Shown: piece after piece, positions 5,940-54,919 of the stretch | Layout: each line of letters starts with the position of its first letter | Position numbering within the stretch: position 1 is the stretch's first letter | Source of the DNA: a virus | Taxonomy: Duplodnaviria; Heunggongvirae; Uroviricota; Caudoviricetes | Direction: 5' to 3' (one strand) | Virus record (IMG/VR): IMGVR_UViG_3300025387_000013 | Location: 46,520 to 110,519 of that record | Length of the DNA: 64,000 nucleotides | Position numbers and translations under genes: made by a program | The notes under the pieces: generated by a model | Databases searched by the model: none | What the model was told of the DNA's origin: nothing | Seen by the model: only the letters and a program-made list of their open reading frames with translations

Positions 5940-6025
5940 ATGAATAGAATTAGCAAATGTAATTTAAAATATTTTACATACCAAGAGAAATAACGATTTC
6001 AGTTAATTTGGTATAATCAGATTAA

Positions 6026-9000
6026 TTAGATAGTTTTTAGAGCTTTCACAATAGAACCATTTCTTGCCTTAAGCTTAGCACCGTTCTTTTTAGATGATGA
6101 TTCTTTAAGGTCTTCATCAGCAGATTCTTTACTACCATCATCTTTAACAAATGTAGGTTTTATTACCACCTTGTATCCAGGATAGGAACCTTTAGCTGTA
6201 CCAGAACCAATAGATCCATTACCTTCTGTATTGAACTGAGTAGGAGCATTAACATTGTAAATCTTTCCATTAGGTCCATATCTATAGTTGTATCTATTTT
6301 CTTCAATTCCTAATGTTCTATTTTCTAATTTGTTCTGAGCAATTTTAGAAGCAATAGATTGAAGAGCTTGTTGAGGTATTTCTTTAGATTTACTCTTAGC
6401 TATAGATTGTCTTTCATATTGTTTATCTAGAATACCTAAGTTTTGTAACTGAGCTTGATTCATCATCTCTCTGTTTCTATTGTAAGTTTGATCAGCTGCT
6501 CCTTGGTTCATTCTAAATTGTTCTCCTAACACTTTATTCTTCATCTCTGCTGCACTAGCCATAATTTGAGCTTGAGCTCCAGGGTTTCTTCCAGCAGCTC
6601 TTATAGCAGCGTTAGATTGTGCATCTATAGAGTTTAATTGATCTTGTAGAGAGATACGTGAAGGTTGTCCTTGTAACATTGGTTGGAATGTTTGAGCTTG
6701 AACAGGCTCTATTTGGTTATTACCTAATGCATACATCTCTCCCATCAACTGATTAGGATCTAAAGGCATTTGATTTGTAGGTCTAGCATAGTCAAATGCA
6801 CTAGAAATAGCATCTGTAATTGCAGTGTTTTTGTCACCTTTCTTTTTATCTTTAGTTGAGAAAACACCAGGAAGAGGACCTTGATCATCTATTAAATTAC
6901 CAGCCTTATCGTAATAATTACCATCTATTTGTTTAATGTTTCTTGGAGAAGATGTAATATTTACATCTGGTAAAACCCCTGGTTGATAAGGAATAGTTGT
7001 ATAATTATCATCTTGTAATAATCTTGGGACAATAGTAGAAATATCAAATTTAGGAGAGTTGCTTGGAGCAAGAACACCATCTTGGGCTTTATTAAGCTTA
7101 GCTCCCATTTTAGCTTGTTTTAAATTTCCTTTCATAACATCTTTATTAAACTTATCAGAGTCTTCATATCCATATTCTTTGGCTGTATCTAGAATAGCAT
7201 TCTGAACATGTGCTGCAGCTTTTAGTTTTTCTGCATTAGCTTTTTGTTTTGCTGTAGCTCCCATCAACATAGCCTTACCAGAATTCAAAGCAAGCTGATC
7301 AAATGGTGTATTTTCACCTGAGTTGTTTACAATACTTGTAGCTCTATTTATAATTTGATTTTGTTTCTTATCGTTCTTAGCTATATCAGTAGCATAGTGT
7401 TTGAACTTTCTTCCTTCTGCTAATTTATCACCTATCTCATCAATTGCCCATTTAGGAATCTGCATATTACCATATACTACAGCATCTCCATCTGTATTTC
7501 CACCATCTTCAAATTTAGGTATTTTAACAACAGGTTCTCCACCTTCCACTTCTATCTGATTGTTTCCAAATCTTGTAGGCATTCCTCCATCATCATGAGA
7601 AGGTCCTCTAAATATGTTTAGCTCTCCTAGATATGGATTGTGAGAAAGAGTTTCAATCTTACCACGTCCTACTTCTAGGTCACCACCCATAGCTAATTGC
7701 GAACCATCTTCAGCAATAGGCATCAATGGTCTTTCTGTAGAAAGAGCTCTTGCACTTGGGGCTACATAATCTTCTTTTAAATGTCCACCACTTCTTAGCA
7801 TATCTGCATCATGTGGAGGTTGTAAAAGATCTTTAAGAGAATATTCTCCAAACTTAGTAATGGTTTGTGGTTGCCATGTATGACTGTTCCATTTATATTC
7901 ATCTCCTACATCTCCACCATTTCTTAAACTTGCAGAATTTGCAGCTTGCATCATTTTTGCCCCAGCAGCCACAGCAGCTCTTTGTGTATTCTGTGTTGTT
8001 TGGTTTTGATAGTTTGCTAATTTTCTAGCATCATCATCACCACCGAATATATTACCTGCACCAGTTCCTAATAGTCCACCAACAACTCCACCAATAGGAC
8101 CAAAGAACGCAGAACCTACAGCACTACCTATTCCTTTACCAATACTAGCTTGTCCTGAAGATTGAAAGAAATCACTAAATCCAAAATCAGCTTTTGGCAA
8201 TTCACCACCCTCTTCGTATTGTTTAGGAGAACTTTCATTTAAAGGTTCATAACCAAGATCATTATATAGGTTGTTAGGAGCATAAGTGTTTTGTATCTCT
8301 GTTGGATTACCGCTTATTCTAGTTCCATATTGAGCTAAATAGTTTGTTCCTACACCTGTAGGACTTCCTAATTGTCCAGGTTGTACTAATTGATCTTCAG
8401 GTCGTACATATCTATTCTGTTGTTTCTGAGCACGACTACCAGCAGCTTGAGCTGTTAATGCAGAGATGTCAGCTGTTTGTTCAGCACCTAATATGTTTTG
8501 TTTTTGCTGTTTCATTTGTCCAATCCCCTGTAGAATTTGAGGAGCAGCATTTAATACACCAAGTCCAGCAGCTCCAGCACTTCCAGCAAAACTTTTACCA
8601 GCACCACCCATAATTTTATCTGCACTACCAGCACCACCAAATATATTTGCAAGTTCATTACCTACACCACCTTGTTTCTGCGTAGCTGTGCCAAGAGCAG
8701 TTCCAAATGATGTAAGATCAAAACCAGACTGAGCTTTCTTTAACCTCTTACCATTCTTACCAAAAGCTGCAGCTCCTATTTCACTTCCTGCATCTTGAAG
8801 AGCACTATTTGTTGCAGCTGTTTTAGCCTGTGAAGCAAATGTATTTAGCAATGAACCAATACCACTACCAGCATTACTAGCAGTAGCATTACGTTGCATA
8901 GCTGCTTGCATGGCTGCTTCTTTCTGTTGCTCATCATATTGAGCTCTACTAACACCAGTGTTTGTAGCTTGAGCATTTGCTAATAGATCATTGAAGGCCA

Positions 9001-21403: not shown

Positions 21404-22659
21404 TATAAATACTGTTTAAATATATTTGTCATTCCATCTGTCTCATCTATTAAAAATGCAGTGATTTCTCCCTTAGACATTACATGACCATTTTTATCAT
21501 CCCATGAACTTTTAGCATTTGAAAAAGCTGGAACTTGATAGAATTTAATACCATTAAAATCATGACTTATTTCATGATGTTTATCTCCTGTAAATATGTA
21601 AAACACTTGATGTTTAGACCAGTGTTCTCTAAACTCTATTGGAAATATACCAGCAAGTTTTGCAGGTTTGATAGCATCACCATGATTAAACATCATTCCT
21701 GTAATACCATATCCTACATATTTTCTATACTTAGGACTAATATCAAATTCTACTCTTTCTTGATTTCTGAAATAAGTTTGTAACCAATGTAACATATGCC
21801 ATCCTACAAACTCATCATGATTACCTGATACATAGGTGATATACACCTTATTAGCATATTGTAATAACATTGTAATTACAAGAACCTCATGATTACATAT
21901 TTGAATAAATGATTCATGATATGTATTTATATTTTGTTGAGGGGTTCCTTTAGTTGTGGTCCCTGTAAATTCACTATTAAACTGATCAGATCCAAGAATA
22001 TAAGTGACATGATCTAAGTTGTTAGATAGTTGAGCTTGTGCCATTATAGTTTCTATTCTATAAATTATTCTAGCACATCTCTCCACTATATTGTTATTTC
22101 CATCTATATCAAACTTATTTAGATGTGAGTCTTGTTTACTAATTACTAGACACCCATGAGGTTTGCTAGCAGTAAACTTAGGACTCATAACATCTTGACT
22201 AACAGGCTTATATAAAGCTAAAAAGTCTACAAACGCATCTTGAAAAACTTGTTCTGTAGACTTCTTACCTAACCATGCCTTAACTTGCCAATGGGGCTCT
22301 TTTTCATTCCCCCAGAAGTTTTGTACATATTTAGTTATTTCCCATTTCTCTGTATCTATTTTGCATTTCTCAATTAGATCATCAAGACTTTTAATTTCTT
22401 CTTTAACATTTACAACTATCTCACCTGTTCCACGTGAAACATCTTCTGTAAATTTAACTATAACATCTTCTAATTCTGATACATAATTTCCAACTTCTGC
22501 ATCATCTTCAATTTGTTCTTTCTTTCTTATATCACTTAGTAAATCATAAACCTCATTTTCTGTAATTCCTAATTTTTCTGCGTAAAACTTTTTTGATTTC
22601 TTCCAATGTAACATTTGTTCAAGTTGCTGTAGAAGAGATTGATTTTCAAGCATATGCAT
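21403..22659 (-). CDS. HTH plus calcineurin-like metallophosphoesterase (Mre11/SbcD or Ser/Thr-phosphatase-like, 418 aa)
   Basis: N-terminal HTH-like segment (YAEKLGITENEVYDLL). Phosphoesterase motifs D-S-H, GSDQ, GNHDE, NHGD and GDKHHE appear in canonical order. First gene after the intrinsic terminator at about 22757-22789. Confidence 0.6.
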   Translation of the reverse strand: MHMLENQSLLQQLEQMLHWKKSKKFYAEKLGITENEVYDLLSDIRKKEQIEDDAEVGNYVSELEDVIVKFTEDVSRGTGEIVVNVKEEIKSLDDLIEKCKIDTEKWEITKYVQNFWGNEKEPHWQVKAWLGKKSTEQVFQDAFVDFLALYKPVSQDVMSPKFTASKPHGCLVISKQDSHLNKFDIDGNNNIVERCARIIYRIETIMAQAQLSNNLDHVTYILGSDQFNSEFTGTTTKGTPQQNINTYHESFIQICNHEVLVITMLLQYANKVYITYVSGNHDEFVGWHMLHWLQTYFRNQERVEFDISPKYRKYVGYGITGMMFNHGDAIKPAKLAGIFPIEFREHWSKHQVFYIFTGDKHHEISHDFNGIKFYQVPAFSNAKSSWDDKNGHVMSKGEITAFLIDETDGMTNIFKQYL

Positions 22660-32263: not shown

Positions 32264-34849
32264 TTATTTAGATTTATTTCTACCTCTAGCATTAATCTTT
32301 GCTATCTCTATATCATCTTTATGATTCTTTCTTTCATTATCTAGTTTCTCTCTTTCCACTTTTATCTTCTCCATCGCTATATTACTCTTAGTTTGAATAT
32401 CCATAGTCTTGAGTCTATAATCATTGGCAGCTTTAGTTTGCTCATGCATCAGTCTACTATTCTCTAAAATATCTGGGATTGAATCTTGATTGACATCCAA
32501 AGGTACCTTTTCAATACTCTCAGCTTTGATGGTAGCAATTTGCTCTTTACTGATTCTATCCAATTGATTTTGGTAGTCATCATGAGCCATTTGCTCTTCA
32601 TGCTGTCTTTGAGCTTGTTGAATTTGAGCATCAGTGTTATATCTCTGTTGATCAATCTCTTGTTGTTTCTGTTGCATTTGTTGTTGCTGAATGGTATCTT
32701 GTTTATCTTTAAGATCTTTAAACACCTTCTTCATCTGACGTACAGAATTTGTAGAATACAATTCAATAATATCATATAAAGATCCACCACTCTGAATAAC
32801 AGTTTGAGACAGTTGTCTAATCTCATTAAACATTTTTTGATCTTCAGGTCTATTAGTTAAGAATACTTTTAAGTCTCTAAACTTAAGATCTGTACCATTC
32901 ACTGATATGAAAGCTGATTCACCAGAGTTAGTTACATAAGAAATAGTTGACTCAGGTTTCTTACTCTCTACATACATAGCAGCATCTATAATTGCTTGAT
33001 AGAGCTGACCTAATATATATTCGTGTGCAACAAATAAAGGTTCTGTCTGTGAATACGATTGACTGATAGCTGTATTTGTACCTGTAGCAGTTTCACTAGC
33101 TGATACTGAACCAAGTCTTTGTTTAGACATACCAACTAATTCCCAACACTCATTCTTAAGCTGTACAGCTAATTGATATCTAGATTGAATCTCTTGTGTA
33201 CGTGTAAGATCAATATCTCTAAATTGATTGAATGAACTAGGACTCTTTAAGTTCTCTGGAGAGTCATCAATAAACATCACTCCTCTATTACGTGCTTCCA
33301 TTTCCCATACATCAAGAGCATCTTGTGCATCTCCATCTTTAGGAATTGGTATGTGTCTAATAGATGTCAAATAAACTTTACCCACTTCTTTCTCAAGAAG
33401 TTTATAAAGCTGATTCATACATACATTATATAACACTTGGAAAGGCTTCATAAGATCTACTAAGCTCTTAGCTTCTGTATTCTTCACCTCATGAATCACT
33501 CCTATAATAGGACAATAGTCTAATAATTTATACGGTTTGATGTTATAGATGTCTGGTCCAATTTTAACTCCTTGATACCATTGATTAATCCATCCCCATT
33601 CTAAAGATTGCTCTGTAGGAATAGTTTTGGATTTATAACTTTCATCTACTAATAGAGATTGCTCATTACCCATTTCATCTAAATAGATAAGTTTTCCTAT
33701 CTTCTTTTTAGAAATCCAATAGGCTCTTACAACAACATATTTATATCCAAAGGAACTAACGTTAGAAGTTAGTCCTAAGAAATCTCTAAGTCCATCGTTG
33801 TTCTCTTTCATTTCAGATTCAATGATCATTCTTGTTTGTAGAACAAGAGGATCATATGTATCATATGTAACAGAGTCTATACCTGGAGTGGCATTAGGAT
33901 TACCAAGATTAGATTCACGTACATTAATCAATCCATAATCTTGAAGAGAGCTACGTAAGTGATCTATTTCATCTTTAGTTATATCAGGAAATGTTTCAAT
34001 AATCTCAGATAGTTCCATCACTTGTACTATACCAGCAGCATAAGCTCCTTGTGCACGACCTGTAGGATCTGAAATATATTTTCTATCTGGGGTTGTTAAG
34101 AACCAAACGTTCTTAGGATTGGCCACCTCAATATTAAATCCAAGTTTTGAATTATCTTCATATATATGAAAGAACTCTCTAGAAGAAATTAACAAATCAC
34201 GAAAAGCATCTTCTGACTTTTCTTTCATTACAAACTCGGCTTTCTGAGATGTAAGAATATGATTGGCCCATTTCTCAGCAACTGATGTATAAGAATCAAT
34301 TTGATCTTTTACACTCTCAAGAGTTTGTTGTTGAACCTGTGGATCGTTCTCATCTAACTCTTGTCCTTTTAATAAGGCTTCTATTTGCATTTTCTTCTTT
34401 GCTTCAGAGATCACATACTCTTGTAAGATTTGTGTCTTGAATTCAAGTTCTTCAGCCTGACTATCATCATCAAAAGCTTTCACTCTAAATGAATCTGGTC
34501 TTTTAGATATCTCACCAACTAGTTCATTTAAAGGAGTGGTGACAATAGAATACATTTTTACGTAAGCTGGTAATTGAAGATCTGCTGTAAGTACATCTGT
34601 AAAACTTCTTACCTGAGGTTCTTGATAGAAATCTTCCATTCTAAGGATACCTTTAACAAGATCATAGTTCTTAACAAATGTATCTCTATTCTTTACATAT
34701 TCAGCATAAGCTCTATTTGCAAAATAGTCCATTGTATTCTTCACCCAACTTTCATCTTGTTTTTCCTTATCAGTTTTAAACTGATCAGGGAATATATTTA
34801 AGTAGGCATACCTAATCGTTGCGTCTTTTGTATATCTTATAATTGCCAT
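32264..34849 (-). CDS. Putative portal protein (861 aa)
   Basis: Large ORF directly downstream of the terminase large subunit, its start overlapping that stop. C-terminal charged, Q-rich coiled-coil tail. Confidence 0.6.
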   Translation of the reverse strand: MAIIRYTKDATIRYAYLNIFPDQFKTDKEKQDESWVKNTMDYFANRAYAEYVKNRDTFVKNYDLVKGILRMEDFYQEPQVRSFTDVLTADLQLPAYVKMYSIVTTPLNELVGEISKRPDSFRVKAFDDDSQAEELEFKTQILQEYVISEAKKKMQIEALLKGQELDENDPQVQQQTLESVKDQIDSYTSVAEKWANHILTSQKAEFVMKEKSEDAFRDLLISSREFFHIYEDNSKLGFNIEVANPKNVWFLTTPDRKYISDPTGRAQGAYAAGIVQVMELSEIIETFPDITKDEIDHLRSSLQDYGLINVRESNLGNPNATPGIDSVTYDTYDPLVLQTRMIIESEMKENNDGLRDFLGLTSNVSSFGYKYVVVRAYWISKKKIGKLIYLDEMGNEQSLLVDESYKSKTIPTEQSLEWGWINQWYQGVKIGPDIYNIKPYKLLDYCPIIGVIHEVKNTEAKSLVDLMKPFQVLYNVCMNQLYKLLEKEVGKVYLTSIRHIPIPKDGDAQDALDVWEMEARNRGVMFIDDSPENLKSPSSFNQFRDIDLTRTQEIQSRYQLAVQLKNECWELVGMSKQRLGSVSASETATGTNTAISQSYSQTEPLFVAHEYILGQLYQAIIDAAMYVESKKPESTISYVTNSGESAFISVNGTDLKFRDLKVFLTNRPEDQKMFNEIRQLSQTVIQSGGSLYDIIELYSTNSVRQMKKVFKDLKDKQDTIQQQQMQQKQQEIDQQRYNTDAQIQQAQRQHEEQMAHDDYQNQLDRISKEQIATIKAESIEKVPLDVNQDSIPDILENSRLMHEQTKAANDYRLKTMDIQTKSNIAMEKIKVEREKLDNERKNHKDDIEIAKINARGRNKSK

Positions 34850-36876
34850 TATGTAAACAATTTATTTTTGTATTTTCTAGTTTTAAACATTCCTCTTGAT
34901 TCTGTAAATAACATATTAGCAGGTTTCTTATTAAACATAGCTAACACTCTTTGATCAGAAGATCCTCCTATCTTTCCCATAATTGGGTCCATCTTAAGTG
35001 CTTGAGCAATAGCTAGTTCTGCAGCAATGATTCGGTCAAAGTTACCCTGATCATTATATTGTATAATTTCTTCTAATAATACAGGATCAAATATCTTACT
35101 AACACCATGCACTTCTCTTATCACTTCTCCTTCATCATTTTTTTCTCTATGTAAAACACTCTCTAGGTATTTCTTCAAACAGGTATGTAAGAATTCTATT
35201 ATCTTATCACTAGAACGATGTATACCAAAGTCTCTTTTTACAGTGGTGTTTGGTACAATCTCCTTAAGCCAATCTGGTTGTTTCTCTAAATAATGAGCAT
35301 CTCCTTTAGCTTTCATATATTCTATAAAAGATATATCATCATTCTCACAGAGAGTTCTAGCATTGTAATATTTAATTAATAACCTAGCTTGTTCTTCCCA
35401 TGTATCTTTCTTATCTGGTCTAGCTACGTAAGACGCTACAAACATATCTTGGTATTTCTCACCTGATATTTCATGCATTCTCTTATATATGTATACAGCT
35501 CCTAAAGAACTTGAATAAGCTGATTTACCTTGTCTATAAGGATCGACTCCTGCTGTATATAATCCATAAGGAGGATTTTCTACAGGAAATTCATATATAA
35601 TAACTGGAGCATCTTTGAGATCACTATTCTTTAAGGGGAAGTTTGTTATGGGAGTTTTATCTGTAAACTCATGTTTGATTCCTGTATCATCTGTATATAA
35701 CACTACAGGAACTCCTGTTTTTTCTTGTTGTAAAAGTCTGAACTTTTGTCTCTTGGCTCCTTCAATATCAAATATATTTGTATCCTCATTTAAGAATATA
35801 TCATCTACATTCTGAGGATAGTACATCTTCTCTTTTAAATAAGCAATTCTGTCTCCAGCTTTTTTAAGTCTATCTAGATTTGCATTGGTTATCTCATCAG
35901 CTTTTTCTTGATTAGACACCAACATTCCAACAGAATGTAGCCCATTATCTTTGGGAAGTTCCAAATAAGCACCCAAAGAACTTTCTTCTTTAGCTTCCAT
36001 TCTGTATTTATGCCCAATGAAAAGCCCATGTATTCTGTTATCTTCTTTATTGTTGTATGTAAGGAAATTAAAATTATCTACATCAAACATCAGGGATTTT
36101 GCATCCATGAATTTCTTCATATCACCCCCAGTACCTGTAAGAATTGGACTACATCCCCAACCATAGGGTGTTGTGAAACCAGGTATAGCCGCTTGCAAAC
36201 CTCTGAGGAAGTTCCCCTTACCAATCTCGTCAATGATAAGTTTTCTAGGTTTGGTACCTGCAATTGCTTCTTCATTGTTACCTTCATCTAAGTTACGTAT
36301 TAATATAGAGGAGAATGGAATACGTTCTCCTGATTTAGTTTTAATTCCTAATGTCACTTGATTCTTCCAATTGTCTTCAATCCTCTGCCATCTCCAATAT
36401 TCAGGAATAAAATTTAATCCTTTATCAATCTTATCTGTAATTAATTTTATATCTGGAGCATTCAGGCCAGCAATAATATTCTGACTATTCTCATCAAATG
36501 TAGCTCCCCAGGCAATATAACTTGCCTCAATAACTGATTTAGCAAAACGTCTAATTCCTAATATTACAAGTCCTCTTCTTTCTGTCTGAGCTCTATCTAT
36601 CTCATTTGTAACAATCCATTCATTATCTCTAAGAAAAGGATTGGCATACTTTTGAGAGATTCTACCCCTATCATCAATTACATCCACTTCTGTATGCCAT
36701 ATATTTAGGTGCCAATATAAAAAGGGGTTAATATAAACCCCATCCATCATAGCACCATTTAGGCAAAGCTCTTTATGAAAATCAAAGAAAGGCTTATACT
36801 CAGAAGAATCTTTATCTGGAAGTCTTTTTTGATTTATGAACCAATCTTTATAATCTATATTTTGTAAATCATTCAT
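34849..36876 (-). CDS. terL: Terminase large subunit (675 aa)
   Basis: Walker A-like LVILGIRRFAKS and Walker B KLIIDEIG. C-terminal nuclease-domain acidic motifs (GVDPYRQG..). Its position heads the head-morphogenesis module. Confidence 0.8.
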   Translation of the reverse strand: MNDLQNIDYKDWFINQKRLPDKDSSEYKPFFDFHKELCLNGAMMDGVYINPFLYWHLNIWHTEVDVIDDRGRISQKYANPFLRDNEWIVTNEIDRAQTERRGLVILGIRRFAKSVIEASYIAWGATFDENSQNIIAGLNAPDIKLITDKIDKGLNFIPEYWRWQRIEDNWKNQVTLGIKTKSGERIPFSSILIRNLDEGNNEEAIAGTKPRKLIIDEIGKGNFLRGLQAAIPGFTTPYGWGCSPILTGTGGDMKKFMDAKSLMFDVDNFNFLTYNNKEDNRIHGLFIGHKYRMEAKEESSLGAYLELPKDNGLHSVGMLVSNQEKADEITNANLDRLKKAGDRIAYLKEKMYYPQNVDDIFLNEDTNIFDIEGAKRQKFRLLQQEKTGVPVVLYTDDTGIKHEFTDKTPITNFPLKNSDLKDAPVIIYEFPVENPPYGLYTAGVDPYRQGKSAYSSSLGAVYIYKRMHEISGEKYQDMFVASYVARPDKKDTWEEQARLLIKYYNARTLCENDDISFIEYMKAKGDAHYLEKQPDWLKEIVPNTTVKRDFGIHRSSDKIIEFLHTCLKKYLESVLHREKNDEGEVIREVHGVSKIFDPVLLEEIIQYNDQGNFDRIIAAELAIAQALKMDPIMGKIGGSSDQRVLAMFNKKPANMLFTESRGMFKTRKYKNKLFT

Positions 36877-37929: not shown

Positions 37930-38194
37930 CCTCTTTATCCTGTTCTATTAAAGCTAACCATTTACCTTTAGGACATTCGCAAGAGAGGCATTTTGTTTTA
38001 GCAGAAAGGGTGCATCCACAATCTGTACAATGATCATCTAGTCTAAATGTTTTATGATGTTTAGAATGAAATTCACATTCCTCACATATGCTTGTTCTTT
38101 CTTTACTAACAGAACTAATTAGAGGTCTTAGCTCTTTAGAAGGAAGAAGATTATTCTTCCAGCCTTCATATATCTGTGAAAAATCAATCTTCAT
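37898..38194 (-). CDS. Cys-rich zinc-ribbon protein (98 aa)
   Basis: CEECEF..H..C..CGC..C..CEC cysteine clusters. Confidence 0.45.
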   Translation of the reverse strand: MKIDFSQIYEGWKNNLLPSKELRPLISSVSKERTSICEECEFHSKHHKTFRLDDHCTDCGCTLSAKTKCLSCECPKGKWLALIEQDKEDELKTAMQNG

Positions 38195-38537
38195 ATTTAG
38201 TTCTAGCTTTAAGTTGGTTTATAGAAGCTATTGTTTTATCAAGGGTAATTTGTGCACTTTTCTTTCTTTGTTCTGTTGTCTCTGGATTGACAATGATTTT
38301 TTCCATAGCTCCTATTTTAGCATTTAAGGCAGCAATCTTTTTAATAGCCTTCTTATTATTAAAATAGAATTTACCAAATCCAGAAATCTCCACACTATCA
38401 TTAACATTCATTGCCTGATTAGCAGATGAGAACTGATGATCTATCACCTTCTCAATTGTCTTTTCTGACACCATCATCTTCACTGCCAAAGTTCTAATGA
38501 GAAAGTCTCTGACAGACATACTCATTGGTTTATCCAT
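38184..38537 (-). CDS. HU/IHF-like DNA-binding protein (117 aa)
   Basis: Hallmark HU-family arm motif VEISGFGKF(Y), preceded by helical N-terminal segments. Confidence 0.55.
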   Translation of the reverse strand: MDKPMSMSVRDFLIRTLAVKMMVSEKTIEKVIDHQFSSANQAMNVNDSVEISGFGKFYFNNKKAIKKIAALNAKIGAMEKIIVNPETTEQRKKSAQITLDKTIASINQLKARTKYED

Positions 38538-38886
38538 GTCCCATAGTTATTTGTAACACTACATCATTCTCAAAATTAAGAAGAATCATAGGGTTCACCT
38601 TTATCTTAGATCCATCTTTAATAAGAATCTTCATCTTCTTAAGCCTGGAAATAATGTTATTAATAGTTGGTGTAGAGCTATTATACTTTGTACAAAACTC
38701 TTCCCTTATATTAGCATAGGAAATGTTTCCTTTTATAGCAGCAAAAGCTATCAGCTGTATTTCTCTCTGCGTAAGCTTTAGATTATTAAAGGATGACAGA
38801 ATGGTGTAATACATCTCTGCAGAAGAGAATGGATCTTCCATGTTTCTCTTTAGCTTTTGAACTACTATTTTCTTATTGGTTTCCAT
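38530..38886 (-). CDS. Putative winged-helix DNA-binding regulator (118 aa)
   Basis: C-terminal TPTINNIISRLKKMKILIKDGSKIKVNP is wHTH-like. Adjacent to the HU-like gene. Confidence 0.4.
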   Translation of the reverse strand: METNKKIVVQKLKRNMEDPFSSAEMYYTILSSFNNLKLTQREIQLIAFAAIKGNISYANIREEFCTKYNSSTPTINNIISRLKKMKILIKDGSKIKVNPMILLNFENDVVLQITMGHG

Positions 38887-39271: not shown

Positions 39272-40234
39272 TTATTTATCTTCCTTACGAGATTTAAAAT
39301 ATTGAACAAGCTTTGGTTCTATAAGTCCTTTAGGATCAATCAGTTTTAACATACCCTGTGAATCCTTCTTCAAATGTTTAATTGGATCAAATTGTGTCTC
39401 TTCTAAAATTTTCCATCTAGTTTGATATCCCCTATCCTTCTTAGACCCATGATAATAATGATTAAGATGTGTCTTTAAATATCCAAATCTTTCACCAATA
39501 TGTTCCAAAGCAAGAGTTTGCCAATCATGAGCAGCTTTCTTATAATTAGGGTGAAACTCCAAAACTAATGAAAGATCTACTTGTCCCACTAAAGAAAGAG
39601 CCATGTAATTATCTGCAGAACCAAGAATACCTACATCAAGCAATCCTTTCAAATCATCAATTGTTTCTCTTCTATACGCCCAAGCATATCCAGGGTGCTG
39701 AAACCCAACCACTCCCTCATGAGCTTTTTGTAACTCATTATTAACTATTTTATTATTATAAGCATACACAAATCCTAAATGTTGCTTCATCACTTGATAA
39801 TCAGAATCAAGATCATTAGCATGTGTAAACATCTGTATCATCTTATAATACTGAAGCTCATGTATTGTAGCCTTCACCCAATCATGTCTTGTAAAAGAAA
39901 CATCAGCATCTATAGTAGCCATATACTCCCAATCATTAGGAAGTCTACCAATCCCTATATTAATCAAATTCTCCTTATACCAAAGAACATTCTTTGTCCT
40001 AATCTGTATATGATGGGGATTGTCAGCCTGTGTCACATGAAATGGCTTATTCCCAATAGCCAATTCCACTGTATAAAGAATAGCACCACTATCCTCTATA
40101 TACTTAGCAAAGGTGTTATACAGCTCATACCTATTCTTATAGCCTTCTGGATTGAAGACTGTTGTCACTACATAAAGATTGTTATTACGCATAAATTTAA
40201 ATTGGGGGATTTTAAAACAAAAATAACCATTCAT
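39272..40234 (-). CDS. Putative GT-A-like glycosyltransferase (DxD) or nucleotide-sugar transferase-like protein (320 aa)
   Basis: VVTTVFNPEGY Rossmann-like start. ATIDADVSF DxD-type acidic motif. First gene of the minus-strand operon, 25 bp downstream of the palindrome. Confidence 0.35.
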   Translation of the reverse strand: MNGYFCFKIPQFKFMRNNNLYVVTTVFNPEGYKNRYELYNTFAKYIEDSGAILYTVELAIGNKPFHVTQADNPHHIQIRTKNVLWYKENLINIGIGRLPNDWEYMATIDADVSFTRHDWVKATIHELQYYKMIQMFTHANDLDSDYQVMKQHLGFVYAYNNKIVNNELQKAHEGVVGFQHPGYAWAYRRETIDDLKGLLDVGILGSADNYMALSLVGQVDLSLVLEFHPNYKKAAHDWQTLALEHIGERFGYLKTHLNHYYHGSKKDRGYQTRWKILEETQFDPIKHLKKDSQGMLKLIDPKGLIEPKLVQYFKSRKEDK

Positions 40235-40258
40235 TTGAATATTCCAATATTATTTTAA

Positions 40259-40274
40259 TGTTCCACGTGGAACA
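40259..40274. promoter_or_regulatory. 16-bp perfect palindrome TGTTCCACGTGGAACA (operator-like site 1) between divergent operons
   Basis: Perfect dyad symmetry. Related copies at about 41055-41072, 41152-41167 (both GTTCCACGTGAAAC) and 54790-54805 (GTTCCACGTGGAAC). Confidence 0.55.
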
Positions 40275-40465
40275 ATATAAAAAATTTTTTCCAAAATTTT
40301 AGGACCTCCTTGTTTAAGGGAGAGGAGGCTACTCCATCTTGTAACCCCCATGGGAGTTGGTAGGGTTGGGGGTAGGGGGGGTGGTTGCTGATTGGGAATG
40401 ATAATTAATTCGAGCAAATTAAAAATAAAAGTGATTGCGACACTATAAAGACTGCAACATTACAA

Positions 40466-40930
40466 ATGGCTAACGCTATAGACACACAAGTTAAGAGTTT
40501 TGAAATTCTTACAGGCGAACAGGTTTTTGACGTTACTTTCATTGAGAATGGATTGCCTTACAATCCTGAAACTGAAAAGGGTAAGAAAAAGCTAACCTAT
40601 TCTCGTTACAGATTCAATGGTACAGTGTTTACTGTTGATGATGATCATGCTTTCATTACTGATTTCAAATCAGGTAACGTTAAGCGAATTAAGCTTGAGA
40701 ATGCTACTTACAAGAAGAAAATCACTGATGCTGACGGTAAAGAAATAACAGAAACTACATCATCATTGAGATTTGACACCTACCTTAATAAGGCACAATG
40801 GCGTGCTATTAAAGACGGTCAAATCGAAGATGCTGAAGATGATTACAAAATCAGCAAATTCAAAAAGCTTGCAGCAGCTCCATTGCAAATGTCTGACGAA
40901 TTGCATGCTGCCTTTGCTACACAAGGCTAA
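40466..40930 (+). CDS. Hypothetical early protein (154 aa)
   Basis: First plus-strand ORF after the divergent control region. Followed by a strong intrinsic terminator. Confidence 0.5.
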   Translation: MANAIDTQVKSFEILTGEQVFDVTFIENGLPYNPETEKGKKKLTYSRYRFNGTVFTVDDDHAFITDFKSGNVKRIKLENATYKKKITDADGKEITETTSSLRFDTYLNKAQWRAIKDGQIEDAEDDYKISKFKKLAAAPLQMSDELHAAFATQG

Positions 40931-40941
40931 TTGATTACTCA

Positions 40942-40976
40942 CATGCTCTCTCTTAATTGGGAGAGCATGTTTTACA
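40942..40976 (+). terminator. Intrinsic terminator (CATGCTCTC..GAGAGCATG + TTTT)
   Basis: 9-11 bp perfect stem followed by a U-run immediately after the stop at 40930. Confidence 0.7.
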
Positions 40977-41054
40977 CGCTTATATATAGCGTGTGGGTTT
41001 AGGGGTTAGGGGCTGTGGGACAATAACTTAACAAAATGTTCCACGTGAAACATT

Positions 41055-41072
41055 GTGTGAAATAAAAAGTTT
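41055..41072. promoter_or_regulatory. Palindrome variant ATGTTCCACGTGAAACAT (site 2)
   Basis: Half-sites ATGTTCCAC / GTGAAACAT. Confidence 0.5.
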
Positions 41073-41151
41073 TTACGGCTATCATATATACTTATTTTAT
41101 AATGCTTCTATTGATAATCAATGAGTTATGCAATAAAACTGTTATGAAATT

Positions 41152-41167
41152 TGTTCCACGTGAAACA
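41152..41167. promoter_or_regulatory. Palindrome variant TGTTCCACGTGAAACA (site 3)
   Basis: The same 14-bp core as site 2, about 100 bp downstream of it. Confidence 0.5.
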
Positions 41168-41882
41168 TATTTAGGGGAATGAATGAGAGGTTGTATGACC
41201 CCTCAAAGCCTAACGAGTTGAAAACCAATTTATTAAAAGGGCTATAACAAAGAAAATATATAGCATTAAATAACAATTATATGAGAACATATTGGATTAC
41301 AAACTATAGCTCTATAGGACTGACTATAGGTGTAGGTAGAGAACATGTTATAACTAGACATACATATATACATAGTAGAGTTATACACTTTACAATAGGG
41401 ATTCTATTCTGGACCTATGTTATTAATATAGATATATAATGCACCATTTCTATTTCCCAAGGATAGACAGATATAATAATAAGTAATTGGGTTATTATAT
41501 TTGAGTGCAGAGGGTTTTTTGGTTCATGCATATTTTTAATTTTTAAAAAGCTCTGGTGTTTCTACACTGGAGCTCTATAATGCATCATTCTACAGTGGAT
41601 ATGAAGACTTCTTATAATTGGTCAAGAGTAATAACCTTGGTTATAAGATGTGAAACCACCTGATTAATTAAAGAGCCTGATAACAATCATATTATGGGAT
41701 GGTATTATGTCTATTCGTATTGGAGGATAACATAATAAAGAGAAACAGGGAAATCAGCTCCCAAGGTGTAGCAGTTGTAATGGTAGGGAGATTATAAAAG
41801 TATCCTAATACCTGTTTGGAATATAATAGGACTATTACAACTGAATGCAGAGGGATTTGTGAAGAAAGACTAGAGGAAAAAT

Positions 41883-41925
41883 AGGAGAGGACTGTGGTAT
41901 GTTCTCTCCTATTTTTATTTTAATT
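41883..41925 (+). terminator. Intrinsic terminator (AGGAGAG..CTCTCCT + ATTTTTATTTT)
   Basis: 7-bp GC-rich stem, 14-nt loop and a T-rich tail at the end of the 1 kb ORF-free region. Confidence 0.6.
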
Positions 41926-42171
41926 ATATTATATATTAAAAATAAATCTATTATGAAAATAAATAAAAATGGTAACGCTACAGGTTTACAAAGAATGAGG
42001 AGAAATTTAAATCATGGATATAAAACAGCTTATTTAACTAAACCTGATCACTCTGTTTATTCTACTCATATGTTTATTACAAATAAAGAAAATAAACCAG
42101 CATCTACATACACTCTTGATGAGTTGTATAATTTATATAAAAATGATAAAATTTTAATTAAACCAATTTAA
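41899..42171 (+). CDS. Hypothetical small protein (90 aa)
   Basis: ORF. The true start is possibly the internal M (MKINKNG). Confidence 0.3.
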   Translation: MFSPIFILIILYIKNKSIMKINKNGNATGLQRMRRNLNHGYKTAYLTKPDHSVYSTHMFITNKENKPASTYTLDELYNLYKNDKILIKPI

Positions 42172-44838: not shown

Positions 44839-45330
44839 ATGTATACACCAGCAAAATTATCATTTAGAAGCTACATGCCTAAACAATTAGAAATAGGTAT
44901 GTGGTTTCTATCTAAGAAACATGAAACAATATATGGTAAAACATATAACTATTTACAAATATATGAGCTTAAAGAGATTCCAAGAGATGTACAATCCTTC
45001 TTAGAGATTAATGGAGCTCCTGTAGAACTGTATATAGTTGCTAAGATGATGAATCCTGATTCAAGAGAAATTGTATTAGCTGAACCACATGAAATAGGTT
45101 GGTTAGATGAAGGCGATTGGTCTGAAGATCTAACTGAAATAGATGTAAACATCATCAATTACCTATTAGAAGAGTGGAGTGGCGACATTGCTATTGAAAC
45201 AGATGAAAATGAAGAAATTATTATTTACGAACACAAATGCACAATTAGAACCATTGATACTGTTCCAGAGGATGAATCAAATGATGAAGAACCTTGGGAT
45301 GATATGGATGATGACAGTTGGCGTGAGTAA
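44839..45330 (+). CDS. Acidic early protein (163 aa)
   Basis: The C-terminal half is very D/E-rich (EDESNDEEPWDDMDDDSWRE). Confidence 0.45.
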   Translation: MYTPAKLSFRSYMPKQLEIGMWFLSKKHETIYGKTYNYLQIYELKEIPRDVQSFLEINGAPVELYIVAKMMNPDSREIVLAEPHEIGWLDEGDWSEDLTEIDVNIINYLLEEWSGDIAIETDENEEIIIYEHKCTIRTIDTVPEDESNDEEPWDDMDDDSWRE

Positions 45331-47984: not shown

Positions 47985-48455
47985 GGGGCTGTTATTGGTA
48001 ATTGATCCGTATGAGAATGGTAGTATCACATGCAAGACTAGGAGGAGTCAAACAACCTCTAAACAATAACCGCAAAGACTAAATCTGAGCGTGTTGCAGA
48101 AGGTGGAGCAATCATTGCTTCTCTTTTTGCTGGTCGTGTAGCAGTTGCTGCATAACCTAACGGAGTGGTAACAACTTGGCAACAGAAAGTTACAATGTGT
48201 GAAGACTAGACGAATTTTGGCTCGTGATTTTAGAGCTTACACAGTAGTATGCCAATACTACAAAATGTTTTCTTGGTAGTCATAAAACCAAGTGGTGGCA
48301 GTGTTGTACTTAACCGTACGACCCCAATACGGTGCAATTAGTAAGCTTATAAGCTGACTAATAGTACAAAGTTGTCAGGCTATAAGCTGACTAAGCATGT
48401 AAGAATGGTATTATGATTACTTACGGAGACAGGGGTTCGAATCCCCTCAGCTCCA
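47985..48455 (+). ncRNA. ssrA: tmRNA (ssrA), complete and phage-encoded
   Basis: 5' GGGGCUG pairs with 3' CAGCUCC-A and includes the G3:U wobble (Ala identity). The 3' region CUGACUAAGCAUGUA...GGAGACAGGGGUUCGAAUCCCCUCAGCUCCA closely parallels E. coli tmRNA (..GACUGACUAAGCAUGUAGUACCGAGG..GGACGCGGGUUCAACUCCCGCCAGCUCCACCA). AAACAAUAACC-GCA resume context matches E. coli AAAAAAUAGUC-GCA. Tag ORF 48072..48152 (27 codons, AKTKSERVAEGGAIIASLFAGRVAVAA) with stop at 48153-48155. Confidence 0.8.
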
Positions 48456-48461
48456 CAACAG

Positions 48462-48533
48462 TCTCAGGTAGCTCAATTGGTAGAGCCTTTAATTGTATTA
48501 AAGAGTGTGTGGGTTCAAATCCCATCCTGAGAC
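48462..48533 (+). tRNA. tRNA, probable Thr (UGU). Anticodon assignment is tentative.
   Basis: Acceptor TCTCAGG/CCTGAGA, D-arm GCTC-AATTGGTA-GAGC with G18G19, anticodon stem CTTTA/TAAAG with loop ATTGTAT, T-arm GTGGG-TTCAAAT-CCCAT and discriminator C. No encoded CCA. 72 nt, position 26 apparently absent. Confidence 0.6.
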
Positions 48534-48548
48534 CTAAATTAAACAATT

Positions 48549-48695
48549 ATGAAACAGTTATTAGCAATTTTATTAATTAGTGGATTAGCCAGTTGTGCTA
48601 CAAATATGTATGCATATAGAAAATGTCCTACAAATGACAAAAGATATTTTTATAATGAAATGGGTGCTAAAGTTCCTAAAGCATTTAGAAAATGA
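48549..48695 (+). CDS. Small lipoprotein (48 aa)
   Basis: MKQLLAILLISGLASC has a signal peptide and lipobox L-A-S-C. The stop overlaps the polymerase ATG (ATGA). Below the ORF-track size cutoff. Confidence 0.35.
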   Translation: MKQLLAILLISGLASCATNMYAYRKCPTNDKRYFYNEMGAKVPKAFRK

Positions 48696-49676
48696 ATGTA
48701 CTTATATATGATATAGAAACATTAAAGGAGCTGTTCCTTGTTGTTATTTATAATCCACAAACAGATGTTACATATGAATTTGCTGTAAGTAAATGGAATA
48801 ATCAATTAGATCCTTTCATTAGATTTACAGAACAACATGAAGACTATTATTGGGTAGGATATAACAATCTACGCTTTGATAGTCAAGTGGTTGAATATAT
48901 TATTAGAAACTATGAAGATTGGCAAACATTGAGTGGATTAGAGATATGTGCTAAAATAGCATTAAAAGCCTCTGATACCATTCATGATGCTAATTATGAT
49001 GTATTTCCTGAATATAGAGAAGAAGCTCTTAGTCTAAAACAAATAGACTTATTTAGAGTGAATCACTATGATAATAAGAATAGACGTGTTAGCTTAAAGA
49101 GATTGGAGTTTGAAATGGATCTTGAGAACATTGAAGAGATGCCTATTCATCATGAAAAGATTGATATGTCCAAAGAAGACATAGAAACTACTATCAACTA
49201 TTGTCACAATGATGTTATGGCTACTTATGAGTTTTATAAGGTGACTATTGGTGAAACTAATCATCCTCTGTATAAGGGCAATAACCAAATAGCTCTTAGA
49301 CAGGATATACAAGAAGAGTTTGGTATTCCTTGTTTGAACTATTCAGATAGTAAAATAGGGGATGAAATGATTAAGAAGTTTTATTGCCAGGAAAAGAACA
49401 TACAATACACTGCTCTACCAAAAAAAGGTACATTCAGAAAGAAAATCAGTGTAAAAGAATGTATTGCACCATATGTAGAGTTTATAACAGATGAGTTACA
49501 GCAGTTCTTAAAGAAGATTAGAAGAATGAATCTTACAATACAAGATGATTTCAAAGAGAGTTTACATTTCTATAATAATGTATACACATTTGCAAAAGGT
49601 GGTCTTCATACAGAAAATAAACCTAAAGTGTTTGAAGCTAGTGAGGATACATTTATTATTGATTGGGATGTTTCGT
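48692..49676 (+). CDS. Family B DNA polymerase, exon 1 (3'-5' exonuclease domain to start of motif A)
   Basis: Exo I (LIYDIETL) and Exo III-like (YCHNDVMATYEFY) motifs. Ends ..IIDWDVS, the first half of Pol B motif A DxxSLYPS. 5' splice site after U49676 is predicted from P1 pairing GUUUCGU/GCGAAAC with a terminal U-G. The ORF track runs on to an in-intron stop at 49696. Confidence 0.65.
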
Positions 49677-50632
49677 TAACAATATGGCGAAACTAAAATT
49701 CCTTAAATTGACGGGAACCTCCTTAGAGCTTAATCTACCAAATTACAGTAGAAATACATATAGTGGCTGAAATAATTACTCAGGTATGGTAAAAAAGATT
49801 AAGATTGGACAATCCGCAGCCAAGGGTCTATAGTGAAATAGATCAAGGTTCAGAGACTAAACAGGGAACTTTAACTATTAATTAATTTAAGTGCCTTGGT
49901 TCTATCCATGTAATTACATATATTTGTAACATGAAATTAGATAGAAAACAAGACTTAAACCGAAGTGGTATATATTGTATAAGAAACAAAGTAAATAATA
50001 AAGTTTACATAGGAAAAGCTGTATGTGTTTATAGAAGGATCAGACAACATATCAATAATCTGAATAAAAAAAACAGAAAAGAAGAAAATGATCATCTTAT
50101 AAATGCTTGGCATAAATATGAAAGAGAAAATTTTGAATACTTTGTATTAGAATATGTATCAATTGACCAATTAAAAGAACAAGAACTATATTGGCAAAAA
50201 ATCTACAAGTGTACTGATAGAAGTAAAGGATATAATTTTAGAGAAGATTCTGAAACAGGTTGTATTGTTTCTACAGAAACAAGAAAAAAACTTAGTGAGG
50301 CTCAAATTAAAAGATTTTCTGATCCAAAAGAAAGACTAAAATCTAGTCATACTCATTGGAAAGATAATCCAGAAGCTACTAAAGAAATGGCAAAAAAAGT
50401 TTCAGAAGCTAAAGTAAAATATTACATTGATCAGTATAGTAAAGATGGAAAATTTATAAAAAGATGGAATTCTGTAAAAGAAATTACAGAACAAAATCCT
50501 TCTTATAAATGGCAGCAAATATACTCAGTTTGTTCAGATCACAAACCTTCTATGTATGGGTTTGTCTGGAAAAAAGAATTAATAGTTAAATGATGATATA
50601 GTCCAGCTATAGTTGAAAGATTATAGATTAAG
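49677..50632 (+). mobile_element. Group I intron carrying a GIY-YIG homing endonuclease, interrupting the DNA polymerase gene
   Basis: Conserved core elements: P-like AAATTGACGGGAAC (about 49712), Q AATCCGCAGC (about 49813-49822), R GGTTCAGAGACTAAAC (about 49847-49862) and S GATGATATAGTCC (about 50596-50608). IGS GGCGAAAC. P9 hairpin CUAUA..UAUAG. Terminal G50632. P10 CAUA/UAUG. Confidence 0.7.
49931..50593 (+). CDS. GIY-YIG homing endonuclease (220 aa), intron-encoded
   Basis: SGIYCIRNKVNNKVYIGKA ... YRRIRQH ... N (GIY-10aa-YIG with R and H), then a basic DNA-binding tail. Lies between the R and S elements. Confidence 0.75.
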   Translation: MKLDRKQDLNRSGIYCIRNKVNNKVYIGKAVCVYRRIRQHINNLNKKNRKEENDHLINAWHKYERENFEYFVLEYVSIDQLKEQELYWQKIYKCTDRSKGYNFREDSETGCIVSTETRKKLSEAQIKRFSDPKERLKSSHTHWKDNPEATKEMAKKVSEAKVKYYIDQYSKDGKFIKRWNSVKEITEQNPSYKWQQIYSVCSDHKPSMYGFVWKKELIVK

Positions 50633-54741: not shown

Positions 54742-54919
54742 ATTATTATTAATTGCCACCATCTTGTTTTTAACAAGTTGTGGACCAGAAGTTCCACGTG
54801 GAACACAGTATGAAATGTATTATGAATACTACTATCCTTATGGATATCGTTTTGCACCAATAAGAATTCAGCGTTTTAGACAAATTCAACCAATTAGAAG
54901 ATATGGACGAAATAAATAA
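54734..54919 (+). CDS. Small lipoprotein (61 aa) containing the 14-bp palindrome
   Basis: MNKLLLIATILFLTSC lipobox L-T-S-C. Tyr/Arg-rich tail. Confidence 0.4.
   Translation: MNKLLLIATILFLTSCGPEVPRGTQYEMYYEYYYPYGYRFAPIRIQRFRQIQPIRRYGRNK

Follow-up and report, generated by a model that had tools for sequence, protein, structure and literature searches.

A predicted three-way-junction RNA family in two copies, beside a conserved candidate operator, at the head of the early arm of an uncultured crAss-like phage

The crAss-like phages are among the most abundant viruses known. Here, we analyzed a 64,000-nucleotide stretch of the genome of an apparent relative of these phages (IMG/VR record IMGVR_UViG_3300025387_000013, positions 46,520 to 110,519; the whole stretch is referred to as the window) and focused on positions 40235 to 41925, where a leftward and a rightward gene arm diverge. 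The main value of the analysis is what sequence comparison indicates to be a new and well-supported family of phage RNAs, present in two copies in a modular non-coding island, together with a conserved candidate operator. The two copies, X1 (41435-41526) and X2 (about 41576-41866), both on the + strand, are strongly supported by comparison with related phages as paralogous short and long forms of a previously undescribed RNA family. We propose that the rightward (early/replication) arm starts with 40235-41925 and that this interval would hold elements of two kinds, a DNA regulatory block and an RNA module island of ∼0.9 kb transcribed rightward. A preliminary description of the same DNA had read the region as a control hub. 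Its inventory of features was largely right, as was its option of one or more non-coding RNAs, for which two copies of a covariation-supported family are a more specific answer than was proposed; promoters proved not to be enriched, and one palindrome had been given a wrong coordinate.

The comparisons below rely on relatives found through the large terminase (TerL; 34849-36876, leftward arm). The closest deposited terminases all share <40% identity with it (Leptolyngbya phage Lbo-JY46, 39.8%; Cellulophaga phages phi4:1 and phi17:2, 33.6%; gut crAss-like phages, ∼27%), and IMG/VR holds 487 terminase relatives, from which 80 loci were fetched (81 to 95% identity; the L-numbered loci below). On this evidence, the window phage belongs to an uncultured environmental clade related to Crassvirales. 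A pattern scan of IMG/VR with the 154-amino-acid (aa) protein that opens the rightward arm recovered no relatives; the terminase query succeeded instead.

X1 matches the covariance model of the family, R1, with 77 bits (E = 6e-18). Units start with UAAUG(C/U)A(C/U)CAUU and finish with UGA(G/A)U(G/A)CAGAGGG, and the family fold is built from a closing helix of 5 bp (P1), a hairpin (P2) whose loop, UUCCCAAGG, is near-invariant, a stem of variable length (P3), and a 3′ tail, CAGAGGG(R). On the + strand of X1, P1 pairs 41440-41444 with 41505-41509, P2 pairs 41449-41453 with 41463-41467, P3 pairs 41468-41480 with 41491-41503, and the tail CAGAGGG ends at 41514. Among family members, P1 is UGCAC/GUGCA, switching to UGUAC/GUACA or UGCAU/AUGCA; the 5 bp of P2 occur as ∼10 stem sequences; and P3 starts as CAG(U/A)UGUAAU...AUUACA(A/U)CUG, after which its tip is free in length and sequence. 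Some 35 nucleotides, clustered in the junctions, loop, and tail, are near-invariant, and the stems are saturated with compensatory changes. The GGG(R) of the tail is able to pair with UCCC of the P2 loop, three of these pairs being invariant and the fourth being U-A in 36 and U-G in 26 sequences. The minimum-free-energy fold of X1 equals the comparative fold exactly. The repeated TGCAGAGGG motifs singled out by the preliminary description do occur (41506-41514 and 41846-41854) but represent the 3′ termini of X1 and X2, not separate signals. The base of P3, GUUGUAAU...AUUACAAC, bears a resemblance to Bacteroidota CRISPR repeats, but P3 varies from 20 to 250 nt in length.

Support for the short form comes from an alignment (A1) of 67 trimmed sequences in which the variable P3 tip was replaced by GAAA; trimming P3 and, in the long form, the hairpins P2a and P2b to their bases hides how the tips behave. 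In A1, 95% of cells are paired, compared with 31 to 51% for slid partners, and compensatory cells number 255, compared with 74 ± 11 in shuffles (0/500). Changes on both sides were found at 14 of 25 pairs, with covariation at all five pairs of P2, at 8 of 11 pairs of P3, and at one position of P1, where C-G becomes U-A in 21 sequences. The stems were left free in the search pattern, so the covariation is not circular. All of the sequences come from one phage clade, whose relatedness exaggerates the shuffle statistics; more robust measures are the control with slid partners and the count of distinct stem variants. Covariance analysis in relatives, which had been suggested as a check on the region, thus found a conserved structure with helices beyond both slid and shuffled controls. 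Read on the + strand, the helices contain 31 G-U and 10 A-C combinations, an asymmetry that argues for the + strand, the sense strand of the early arm, as the strand that folds.

X2 fits the same architecture with an insertion of ∼165 nt in the P2 loop, just before CCCAAGG; the 5′ strands of its P1 and P2 (41581-41594) are separated from the remainder of the unit by ∼170 nt. Its P1 pairs UGCAU (41581-41585) with AUGCA (41845-41849) and its P2 pairs CUACA (41590-41594) with UGUAG (41767-41771), on the + strand; the insertion is followed by CUCCCAAGG, then P3, and then the CAGAGGG tail. The 3′ half of X2 (41749-41866) scores 21.9 bits with R1, which finds nothing in the window beyond X1 and this half. 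Within the insertion of X2, hairpin P2a is GUGGAUAUGAAGACUUCU...AAGAUGUGAAACCAC; in the long form generally it reads GUGGAUAU(G/A)AAGACUUCU, a variable tip, and AAGAUGUGAAACCAC, with a highly conserved internal loop, and a second hairpin, P2b, consists of CUGAUUA, a variable tip, and UAAUCAG (in X2, CUGAUUA...AAUCAG). The long-form signature GATGTGAAACCACCTGAT is present on 30 IMG/VR contigs, from which ∼20 complete units were recovered. In an alignment of 15 trimmed long-form sequences (A4), the long-range helices P1 (2/5 pairs) and P2 (5/5 pairs) covary across insertions of 80 to 250 nt and are 98.7% paired; over all helices, 24 of 46 pairs have changes on both sides, and 89% of cells are paired, compared with 28 to 39% for slid partners. 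Genomes with two copies, one short and one long, are frequent. The window has the short form first and then the long form, and in L343 the long and short forms stand in tandem.

Scanning IMG/VR with the stem-free pattern revealed at least 119 contigs with the core and, among the matches listed, 105 distinct units of 53 to 296 nt. Units with the same boundaries are present in the TerL-anchored loci. R1 was run on the window, on the related loci, and on bases 1 to 9000 of the Cellulophaga phage phi14:2; in 22 TerL-anchored loci it identified one unit each, 1.5 to 2.5 kb beyond the winged-helix (wHTH) gene and in early orientation, with none among late genes. Rfam 15 (4,227 models) matched only a transfer-messenger RNA (tmRNA) and a tRNA in the window at gathering thresholds, both elsewhere; at E ≤ 10, positions 40100-42100 yielded only noise of 14 to 23 bits, far below the thresholds, and no unit was matched in ten related unit-carrying loci. 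The region has no DNA homology to any of 50,697 GenBank phage records, in which the family consensus gave only chance matches at E = 8. A looser 26-nt pattern hit 120 loci among the 185,579 representative genomes of bacteria and archaea in the GTDB; R1 was run on the first 100 of these (the remaining 20 were not scanned), and one passed, L274. This locus is a phage contig with terminase, portal, and wHTH genes that was binned with a Sediminibacterium metagenome-assembled genome, a weak hint that the hosts are Bacteroidota. In the sequences searched, the distribution of the family thus appears to be restricted to phages.

The surroundings of the units bear on what they might do. Of 121 units, 44 have the ATG of a downstream open reading frame (ORF; ≥40 aa) no more than 60 nt from their end, and 73 have one no more than 120 nt away; units often lie 30 to 60 nt upstream of start codons. 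We found no consistent downstream gene family of the kind expected of a riboswitch or attenuator leader: the ORFs belong to several unrelated families, differ between phages, and have no common metabolic theme. Many units are followed by a shared A/U-rich leader, TTAACTTATAGAAACTT...AAACTTATG, which suggests that unit and leader form a portable cassette; the RNA unit would travel with the A/U-rich leader of whichever early gene follows. On the other side, it is common for a hairpin to end 3 to 8 nt before UAAUG, and this hairpin is often a classic terminator for the ORF before it. In the window, X1 and X2 precede a strong terminator at 41877-41925.

Other RNAs occur in the same islands. Hatchet ribozymes are found in the early non-coding islands of seven relatives (L088, L199, L179, L189, L181, L197, and L176), 0.7 to 1.6 kb upstream of a three-way-junction unit and on the same strand; with the threshold at 51 bits, the L088 copy (6387-6553, + strand) reaches 79. 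An nhmmer search with this Hatchet matched six other loci and not the window. A tRNA gene (36.7 bits) is nested inside an RNA unit in L026 (5925-6082, − strand), and the same is seen in L027 and L028; it has an 85-nt insertion in the anticodon loop, is flanked by a 15-nt duplication, ATTTCTATTTCCCAA, and is not called by ARAGORN.

A precedent exists in the crAss-like Cellulophaga phage phi14:2, in which two long early intergenic regions (g004-g006) are transcribed rightward above most genes and persist late; the early promoters of that phage share no common motif, and the function of its early non-coding RNAs is not known (Drobysheva et al., 10.1101/2020.03.07.982082). Both phages are crAss-like, and both have kilobase-scale gene-free regions at the start of the early arm, in the direction of the early genes. 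The two differ in that expression was demonstrated in phi14:2 and the window is known from sequence alone, and in that no conserved fold has been reported for phi14:2. Taken together with this precedent, the downstream, upstream, terminator, and neighboring-RNA contexts favor a structured element of early transcripts, and we see an even chance that the units act in cis as a structured leader, processing site, or stabilizer of those transcripts. The pseudoknotted three-way junction would then sit in a leader or between cistrons as a binding, processing, or stabilizing site. We infer both the transcription of the island and the cis-acting role, as well as any protein partner.

The put RNAs of phage HK022 are one of the closest known systems. 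They act in cis, form two stacked hairpins, and make RNA polymerase resistant to terminators. Like put, the units are multi-helix RNAs of ∼70 to 90 nt, occur as two paralogous copies per genome heading early operons, and combine covarying stems with conserved unpaired bases; they, too, would act without a dedicated downstream gene family. In contrast, put has no pseudoknotted three-way junction, and many of our units lie downstream of terminator-like hairpins; downstream terminators are not enriched for the units, although X1 and X2 precede the terminator at 41877.

Several results weigh against a structured cis-acting element or against parts of it. R1 found no homologue in bases 1 to 9000 of phi14:2, so that the precedent is one of analogy only. 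No recognizable promoter precedes the units, and the sequence on their 5′ side shows no conservation. Terminators lie within 220 nt downstream of 23 of 113 units, compared with 43 of 300 random control segments, which is no consistent association, and neither a downstream terminator nor another expression platform typical of riboswitch or attenuator leaders emerged. About 40% of the units have no ORF within 120 nt, a spacing equally compatible with a free-standing RNA and with a leader. The pattern used to collect A1 fixed CCAUU, UUCCCAAGG, and CAGAGGG, and the invariance is therefore partly by construction; partial independent support for it comes from the TerL-anchored set, with one natural variant, UUCCCCAGG, in L057. 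The pairing pattern between loop and tail is compatible with a pseudoknot and has no covariation support. Lastly, the single-sequence folding energy of X1 is unremarkable (z = −0.98), and the RNA case thus rests on relatives and not on thermodynamics.

The units could instead be free-standing, abundant, trans-acting early RNAs, such as a decoy, a sponge, or a host-takeover RNA, with the exposed UUCCCAAGG loop as the site of interaction, an alternative to which we give about half the weight of a cis-acting element. By analogy, the very abundant and persistent early non-coding transcripts of phi14:2 point this way, as do the units far from ORFs, the many units with hairpins or terminator-like stems 3 to 8 nt upstream, the frequent pairing of a short and a long copy in one genome, the near-invariance of the single-stranded loop, and the strong terminator after X2. 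Yet the complementary target, CCUUGGGAA, was not found in the window, where CCTTGGG occurs once on the + strand, at 45292. The lack of a consistent terminator and of R1-detectable homology to the phi14:2 region also argues against a trans-acting RNA.

The island itself is a patchwork. As the preliminary description had noted, 40977-41898 contains no ORF of 60 aa or more, the longest being 52 aa. Recoding of stop codons as a cause of this gap was rejected, as TAA, TAG, and TGA occur in all six frames. When window positions 40200-42000 were compared with the related loci by blastn, similarity fell into islands of 40 to 120 nt with 85 to 97% identity, variable in spacing and order and set in unalignable surroundings. 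Module C (41064-41133, + strand) is 87 to 99% identical in L001, L023, L039, L052, and L342, and within it, just 3′ of a TATAAT hexamer, is a perfect 13-nt palindrome, ATTGATAATCAAT (41113-41125). Module E (41241-41291, + strand), a GCTATA..TATAGC hairpin plus ATTAAATAACAATTATATGAGA, recurs in ∼25 related loci at 82 to 100% identity; lying upstream of the RNA units, which it abuts directly in L056, it may serve as a promoter or leader element. Which islands are shared differs from one close relative to the next: L342 has window positions 41033-41283 (modules C and D/E) and X2 without X1, similarity to L001 ends at 41116, and L097 shares 41232-41478 at ∼97%. The region therefore reads as a mosaic of non-coding modules shared in differing combinations with related environmental crAss-like phages. 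Other recurrent non-coding modules lie beside units, namely ATCAAGGATTGCAACCTTGTGAGAGTAC, TATCCAGTAAGTTGCTGGCG..., and the hairpin GAATATATAGCTGAGGCAACATTAAGCTATATATTCGCTTT (in L121, L154, L176, L179, and L192; in L118, L168, L194, and L199; and in L003, L037, L057, and L152), and may be further RNA families.

Such a mosaic raises the alternative that the conserved blocks are recombination cassettes kept mainly for shuffling accessory early genes, with the RNA fold incidental. A comparable case is PeSL of T4-type phages (Arbiol et al. 2010), reportedly a promoter plus a simple stem-loop that serves as a mobile regulatory cassette. Both PeSL and the units are short, conserved repeats of a regulatory kind that lie beside variable early accessory genes and mark recombination breakpoints, whereas the units are RNA folds of 80 to 380 nt with extensive covariation and no identifiable promoter. 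Besides the mosaic arrangement, a sharp break in identity inside P3 supports shuffling: window positions 41247-41478 and L097 positions 8221-8469 are ∼97% identical up to the P3 5′ strand of X1 and unrelated from inside the P3 tip, which appears to be a recombination breakpoint within the variable stem. Units also precede different ORFs in different phages, and the genes beside them are accessory (the 154-aa ORF is found in 8 of 80 loci and a 320-aa ORF in none of 80). However, recombination alone selects neither compensatory changes nor G-U over A-C on one strand. Shuffling is compatible with an RNA role and would be an added property rather than a rival; we consider cassettes with an incidental fold improbable.

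The DNA regulatory block lies at the divergence point itself. A perfect 16-bp palindrome, TGTTCCACGTGGAACA (40259-40274), is present as had been described, and two further sites have the sequence TGTTCCACGTGAAACA. One of these was correctly placed at 41152-41167, with an equivalent second site in L056; the other, previously put at about 41055-41072, lies at 41037-41052. It is followed 12 nt later by AAAAAGTTTTT, in the layout of site 1. A further copy, at 54790-54805, falls within a gene, as claimed, in this case a 61-aa ORF on the + strand, and like the copy at 41152 has one mismatch; we found a fifth at 22426-22441, inside a 418-aa ORF on the − strand. These five sites with ≤1 mismatch in 64 kb compare with 0.16 expected (0/100 shuffles). 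The two intragenic copies could be internal regulatory sites or chance survivors. Absence of the palindrome from relatives, a possibility that had been raised against the earlier reading, is not what we observe: GTTCC-N4-GGAAC occurs in 28 of 46 distinct related loci, within 1.6 kb of the wHTH gene (316 to 1,369 nt beyond it), at a density of 0.39 per kb at the junction versus 0.03 per kb elsewhere, a 13-fold enrichment. The half-sites GTTCC and GGAAC are kept among relatives, and the center varies (ACGT, ATGT, or TTGT).

The palindrome is part of a head block (40257-40385, + strand) that contains an A-tract/T-tract ∼15 nt downstream and GGGAG, ACCCC, and GTTGGGG boxes, and that can be aligned in 24 related loci. 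AAAATTTTTTT follows the palindrome at a fixed distance of ∼15 nt, and site 2 of the window repeats the arrangement of palindrome and A5GT5. RNAalifold on 11 sequences of the head block (alignment A2) gave 0 compensatory pairs, although the sequence is conserved, and an RNA fold was dropped for this segment; the block looks like a DNA-level regulatory element or a sequence-conserved leader.

A possible partner of the palindrome is encoded nearby. The 118-aa wHTH protein (38530-38886, − strand), the first conserved gene of the leftward arm, is present in 76 of 80 related loci and has >2,000 homologues. Its AF2 model has a winged-helix, transcription-factor-like fold (pLDDT 77), and the best fold matches are the N-terminal domain of T4 MotA (E = 2.7e-3, TM 0.63, 1.9 Å) and then MarR/Fur-type regulators. 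The MotA N-terminal domain contacts sigma, not DNA. As with MarR/Fur-type repressors on palindromic operators, the window combines a perfect 16-bp palindrome, conserved 5-bp half-sites, and an adjacent small winged-helix protein; the difference is that the fold matches of the 118-aa model to MarR/Fur and MotA folds are weak (E ≥ 2.7e-3). The palindrome is probably an operator, judged by its conservation at the junction beside a winged-helix gene, and an operator-regulator pair of palindrome and 118-aa protein is a plausible and economical reading of sequence and model: the divergence point would be an operator/promoter region to which a winged-helix protein binds as a dimer, and for that protein the adjacent conserved gene is the obvious candidate. 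This reading has its own weak points, as the link between this protein and the palindrome is purely conjectural, with fold matches at E > 0.001, and sigma-70-like promoter matches number 12 versus 9.9 expected, which is no enrichment. Hence, of the operator and promoter cluster proposed earlier, the operator part gains from the conserved palindrome beside the wHTH gene, and the promoter part stays at chance level. The polymerase that transcribes crAss-like early genes may be a virion enzyme.

The same features had also prompted the suggestion of a replication origin. In such a reading, the palindromes would be initiator sites for the winged-helix protein, an A/T tract would be the unwinding element, and G-rich runs on the non-template strand would stabilize an R-loop primer, as in ColE1, T4, and mitochondrial CSB II. 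The circumstantial evidence consists of a minimum of the cumulative GC skew at 39 to 40 kb of the window, three palindromes within 0.9 kb, the A6T6 tract AAAAAATTTTTT adjoining site 1, an HU/IHF-like gene next door (38184-38537, leftward arm), G-runs unique in the window and on the non-template strand, and a match of the 118-aa protein to Pfam Phage_rep_O (E = 0.004). The turn in GC skew coincides with the switch in transcription direction and is therefore not independent evidence of an origin. Most relatives have a single palindrome and no iteron array, which would call for at least 3 to 4 clustered initiator-binding repeats, and no adjacent initiator of a known family, as an iteron origin would have, was found: the Phage_rep_O match (18.1 bits) is below the Pfam cut-off of 28.7, and the fold search prefers transcription-factor wHTH folds of the MotA N-terminal domain, MarR, and Fur types. 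Nor are the G-runs widely kept (unconserved at 40363 and found in only 6 of 41 loci at 40995), and an origin would leave the + strand-specific covariation of the RNA units unexplained. We consider an origin here slightly less probable than the recombination cassettes.

Those G-runs, GGGTTGGGGGTAGGGGGGGTGG (40363-40384, its end also placed at 40381) and GGG-TTTA-GGGG-TTA-GGGG-CTGT-GGG (40995-41019), both on the + strand, were rightly described as striking: with four G-tracts of ≥3 Gs and loops of 1 to 7 nt as the criterion, no other canonical G-quadruplex (G4) match occurs in the 64 kb on either strand (shuffle mean, 0.05). At 40363, relatives have GGGGG-TAn-CCCCC, and several carry C-runs on the + strand, so a conserved G4 is not upheld there; what appears to be conserved is a richness in G/C runs and not a G4 on a given strand. 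The motif at 40995 keeps all four G-tracts in the six loci that have it, as 4 to 5 distinct variants (loops TGTA; TTA/CTA/TCA; TTGT/TTGA), with no complementary C-run nearby and an unexceptional RNA fold (z = 0.05). A selected G4 or protein site would look like this, in a small sample.

A further alternative is a catalytic or ligand-sensing RNA: early transcripts would be trimmed by a self-cleaving ribozyme of a new class, or the downstream gene would be controlled by a riboswitch-like sensor. It is suggested by the ∼35 near-invariant nucleotides set against compensatory-saturated stems, by an architecture seen in many ribozymes and aptamers (a compact, pseudoknotted junction in which one stem can take any length), by the Hatchets in the same islands, and by the frequent position 30 to 60 nt upstream of start codons. 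Hatchet (Rfam RF02678) shares with the units the islands and strand in seven related phages, one free-length stem, and GUGCAGA near the 3′ end. It differs in consisting of a 5′ hairpin followed by a nested domain, whereas GUGCA in the unit family is a strand of a covarying helix; the Hatchet model (threshold, 51 bits) matched neither X1 and X2 of the window nor two L088 units at E ≤ 1 to 10, and a search of L088 6200-8300 with Rfam at E ≤ 1 returned only the Hatchet and neither of the two units. HDV-like, pistol, and hammerhead topologies were rejected by inspection because the helix order does not fit. The absence of any Rfam ribozyme or riboswitch match even at E ≤ 10, the heterogeneous downstream genes, and the lack of a consistent expression platform or terminator all tell against catalysis or sensing, and the invariance may partly reflect shared ancestry in a narrow clade and partly the search pattern. 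We therefore rank such an RNA slightly below the origin. The wider proposal, of a new RNA class of a large environmental crAss-like clade that would be either a ribozyme acting alongside Hatchets on early leaders or a cofactor or sensor for the phage transcription machinery, seems to us about as doubtful as an origin.

That the ORF-free region encodes small proteins is very improbable: a 52-aa ORF between modules E and X1 (41281-41439, + strand) is intact in L097, but at ∼97% identity (3 of ∼5 to 6 changes non-synonymous) the match is uninformative, no other relative has this ORF, which is unlikely to be a gene, and conservation in the units tracks stems and not codons. A small peptide from the conserved AUG at the start of each unit was likewise rejected, since the AUG-to-UGA offset falls in all three phases and the frames run for 4 to 53 codons, with a stop after four codons in 29 short units.

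The remaining small hairpins were all found in the window. CACGC..GCGTG is present at 40976-40994 but is not conserved as such in relatives. The 10-bp hairpin AGCUCUGGUG/CACUGGAGCU at 41550-41575 lies between X1 and X2 and has two G-U pairs on the + strand. The intrinsic terminator said to end the region has a 16-bp stem with an 8-nt loop (41877-41916) followed by TTTTTATTTT, a T-run to ∼41925; on the + strand, it closes the non-coding island.

The divergent arms are as first described, with the gene strand switching at 40234/40466. Leftward from the junction run the 320-aa ORF (39272-40234, − strand; no family match), which lies between the wHTH gene and the palindrome, then the wHTH gene and the HU-like gene that adjoins it, and the terminase and portal (32264-34849) genes; synteny of wHTH, HU, and Zn-ribbon genes is seen in 76 loci. 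The rightward arm opens with the accessory 154-aa ORF (40466-40930, + strand; no family assignment) and a terminator-like hairpin, CATGCTCTC..GAGAGCATG followed by TTTT, 3′ of it (40943-40974, + strand), and continues with small early ORFs, the tmRNA and a tRNA-Thr, a split polymerase with a GIY-YIG gene, and DnaB-like and SNF2-type helicases. Since the 320-aa ORF is seen in 0 of 80 related loci, as lineage-specific cargo, and the homologues of the 154-aa ORF (31 to 42% identity) are seen in 8 of 80, the junction appears to be a hypervariable accessory region. Searches of the 154-aa and 118-aa protein sequences against the PDB were uninformative.

Further along the early arm, the phage-encoded tmRNA (70.9 bits) and a tRNA-Thr(UGU) 4 nt after it occupy 47985-48534; ARAGORN does not report this tmRNA. 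In the close relative L342, this tRNA-Thr has a group I intron (86 bits, 7357-7591) on its upstream side. At 48692-50593, a single 334-aa ORF, exonuclease-like and resembling a polymerase N terminus, is followed by a free-standing GIY-YIG homing endonuclease gene (49931-50593), an arrangement that suggests a polymerase gene interrupted by a mobile element.

For the study of early gene expression in crAss-like phages, the RNA family provides a sharply defined element at the head of the early arm. At 80 to 90 nt, it is an RNA object that can be synthesized and assayed for cleavage, for ligand or protein binding, and for an effect on transcription or translation in Bacteroidota. The palindrome beside the winged-helix gene is a candidate operator-regulator pair for the divergent junction and is itself testable. 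More broadly, ORF-free stretches of these genomes are not junk but mosaics of RNA modules (the unit motif, Hatchet ribozymes, and intron-bearing tRNAs), which bears on the annotation of viral dark matter.

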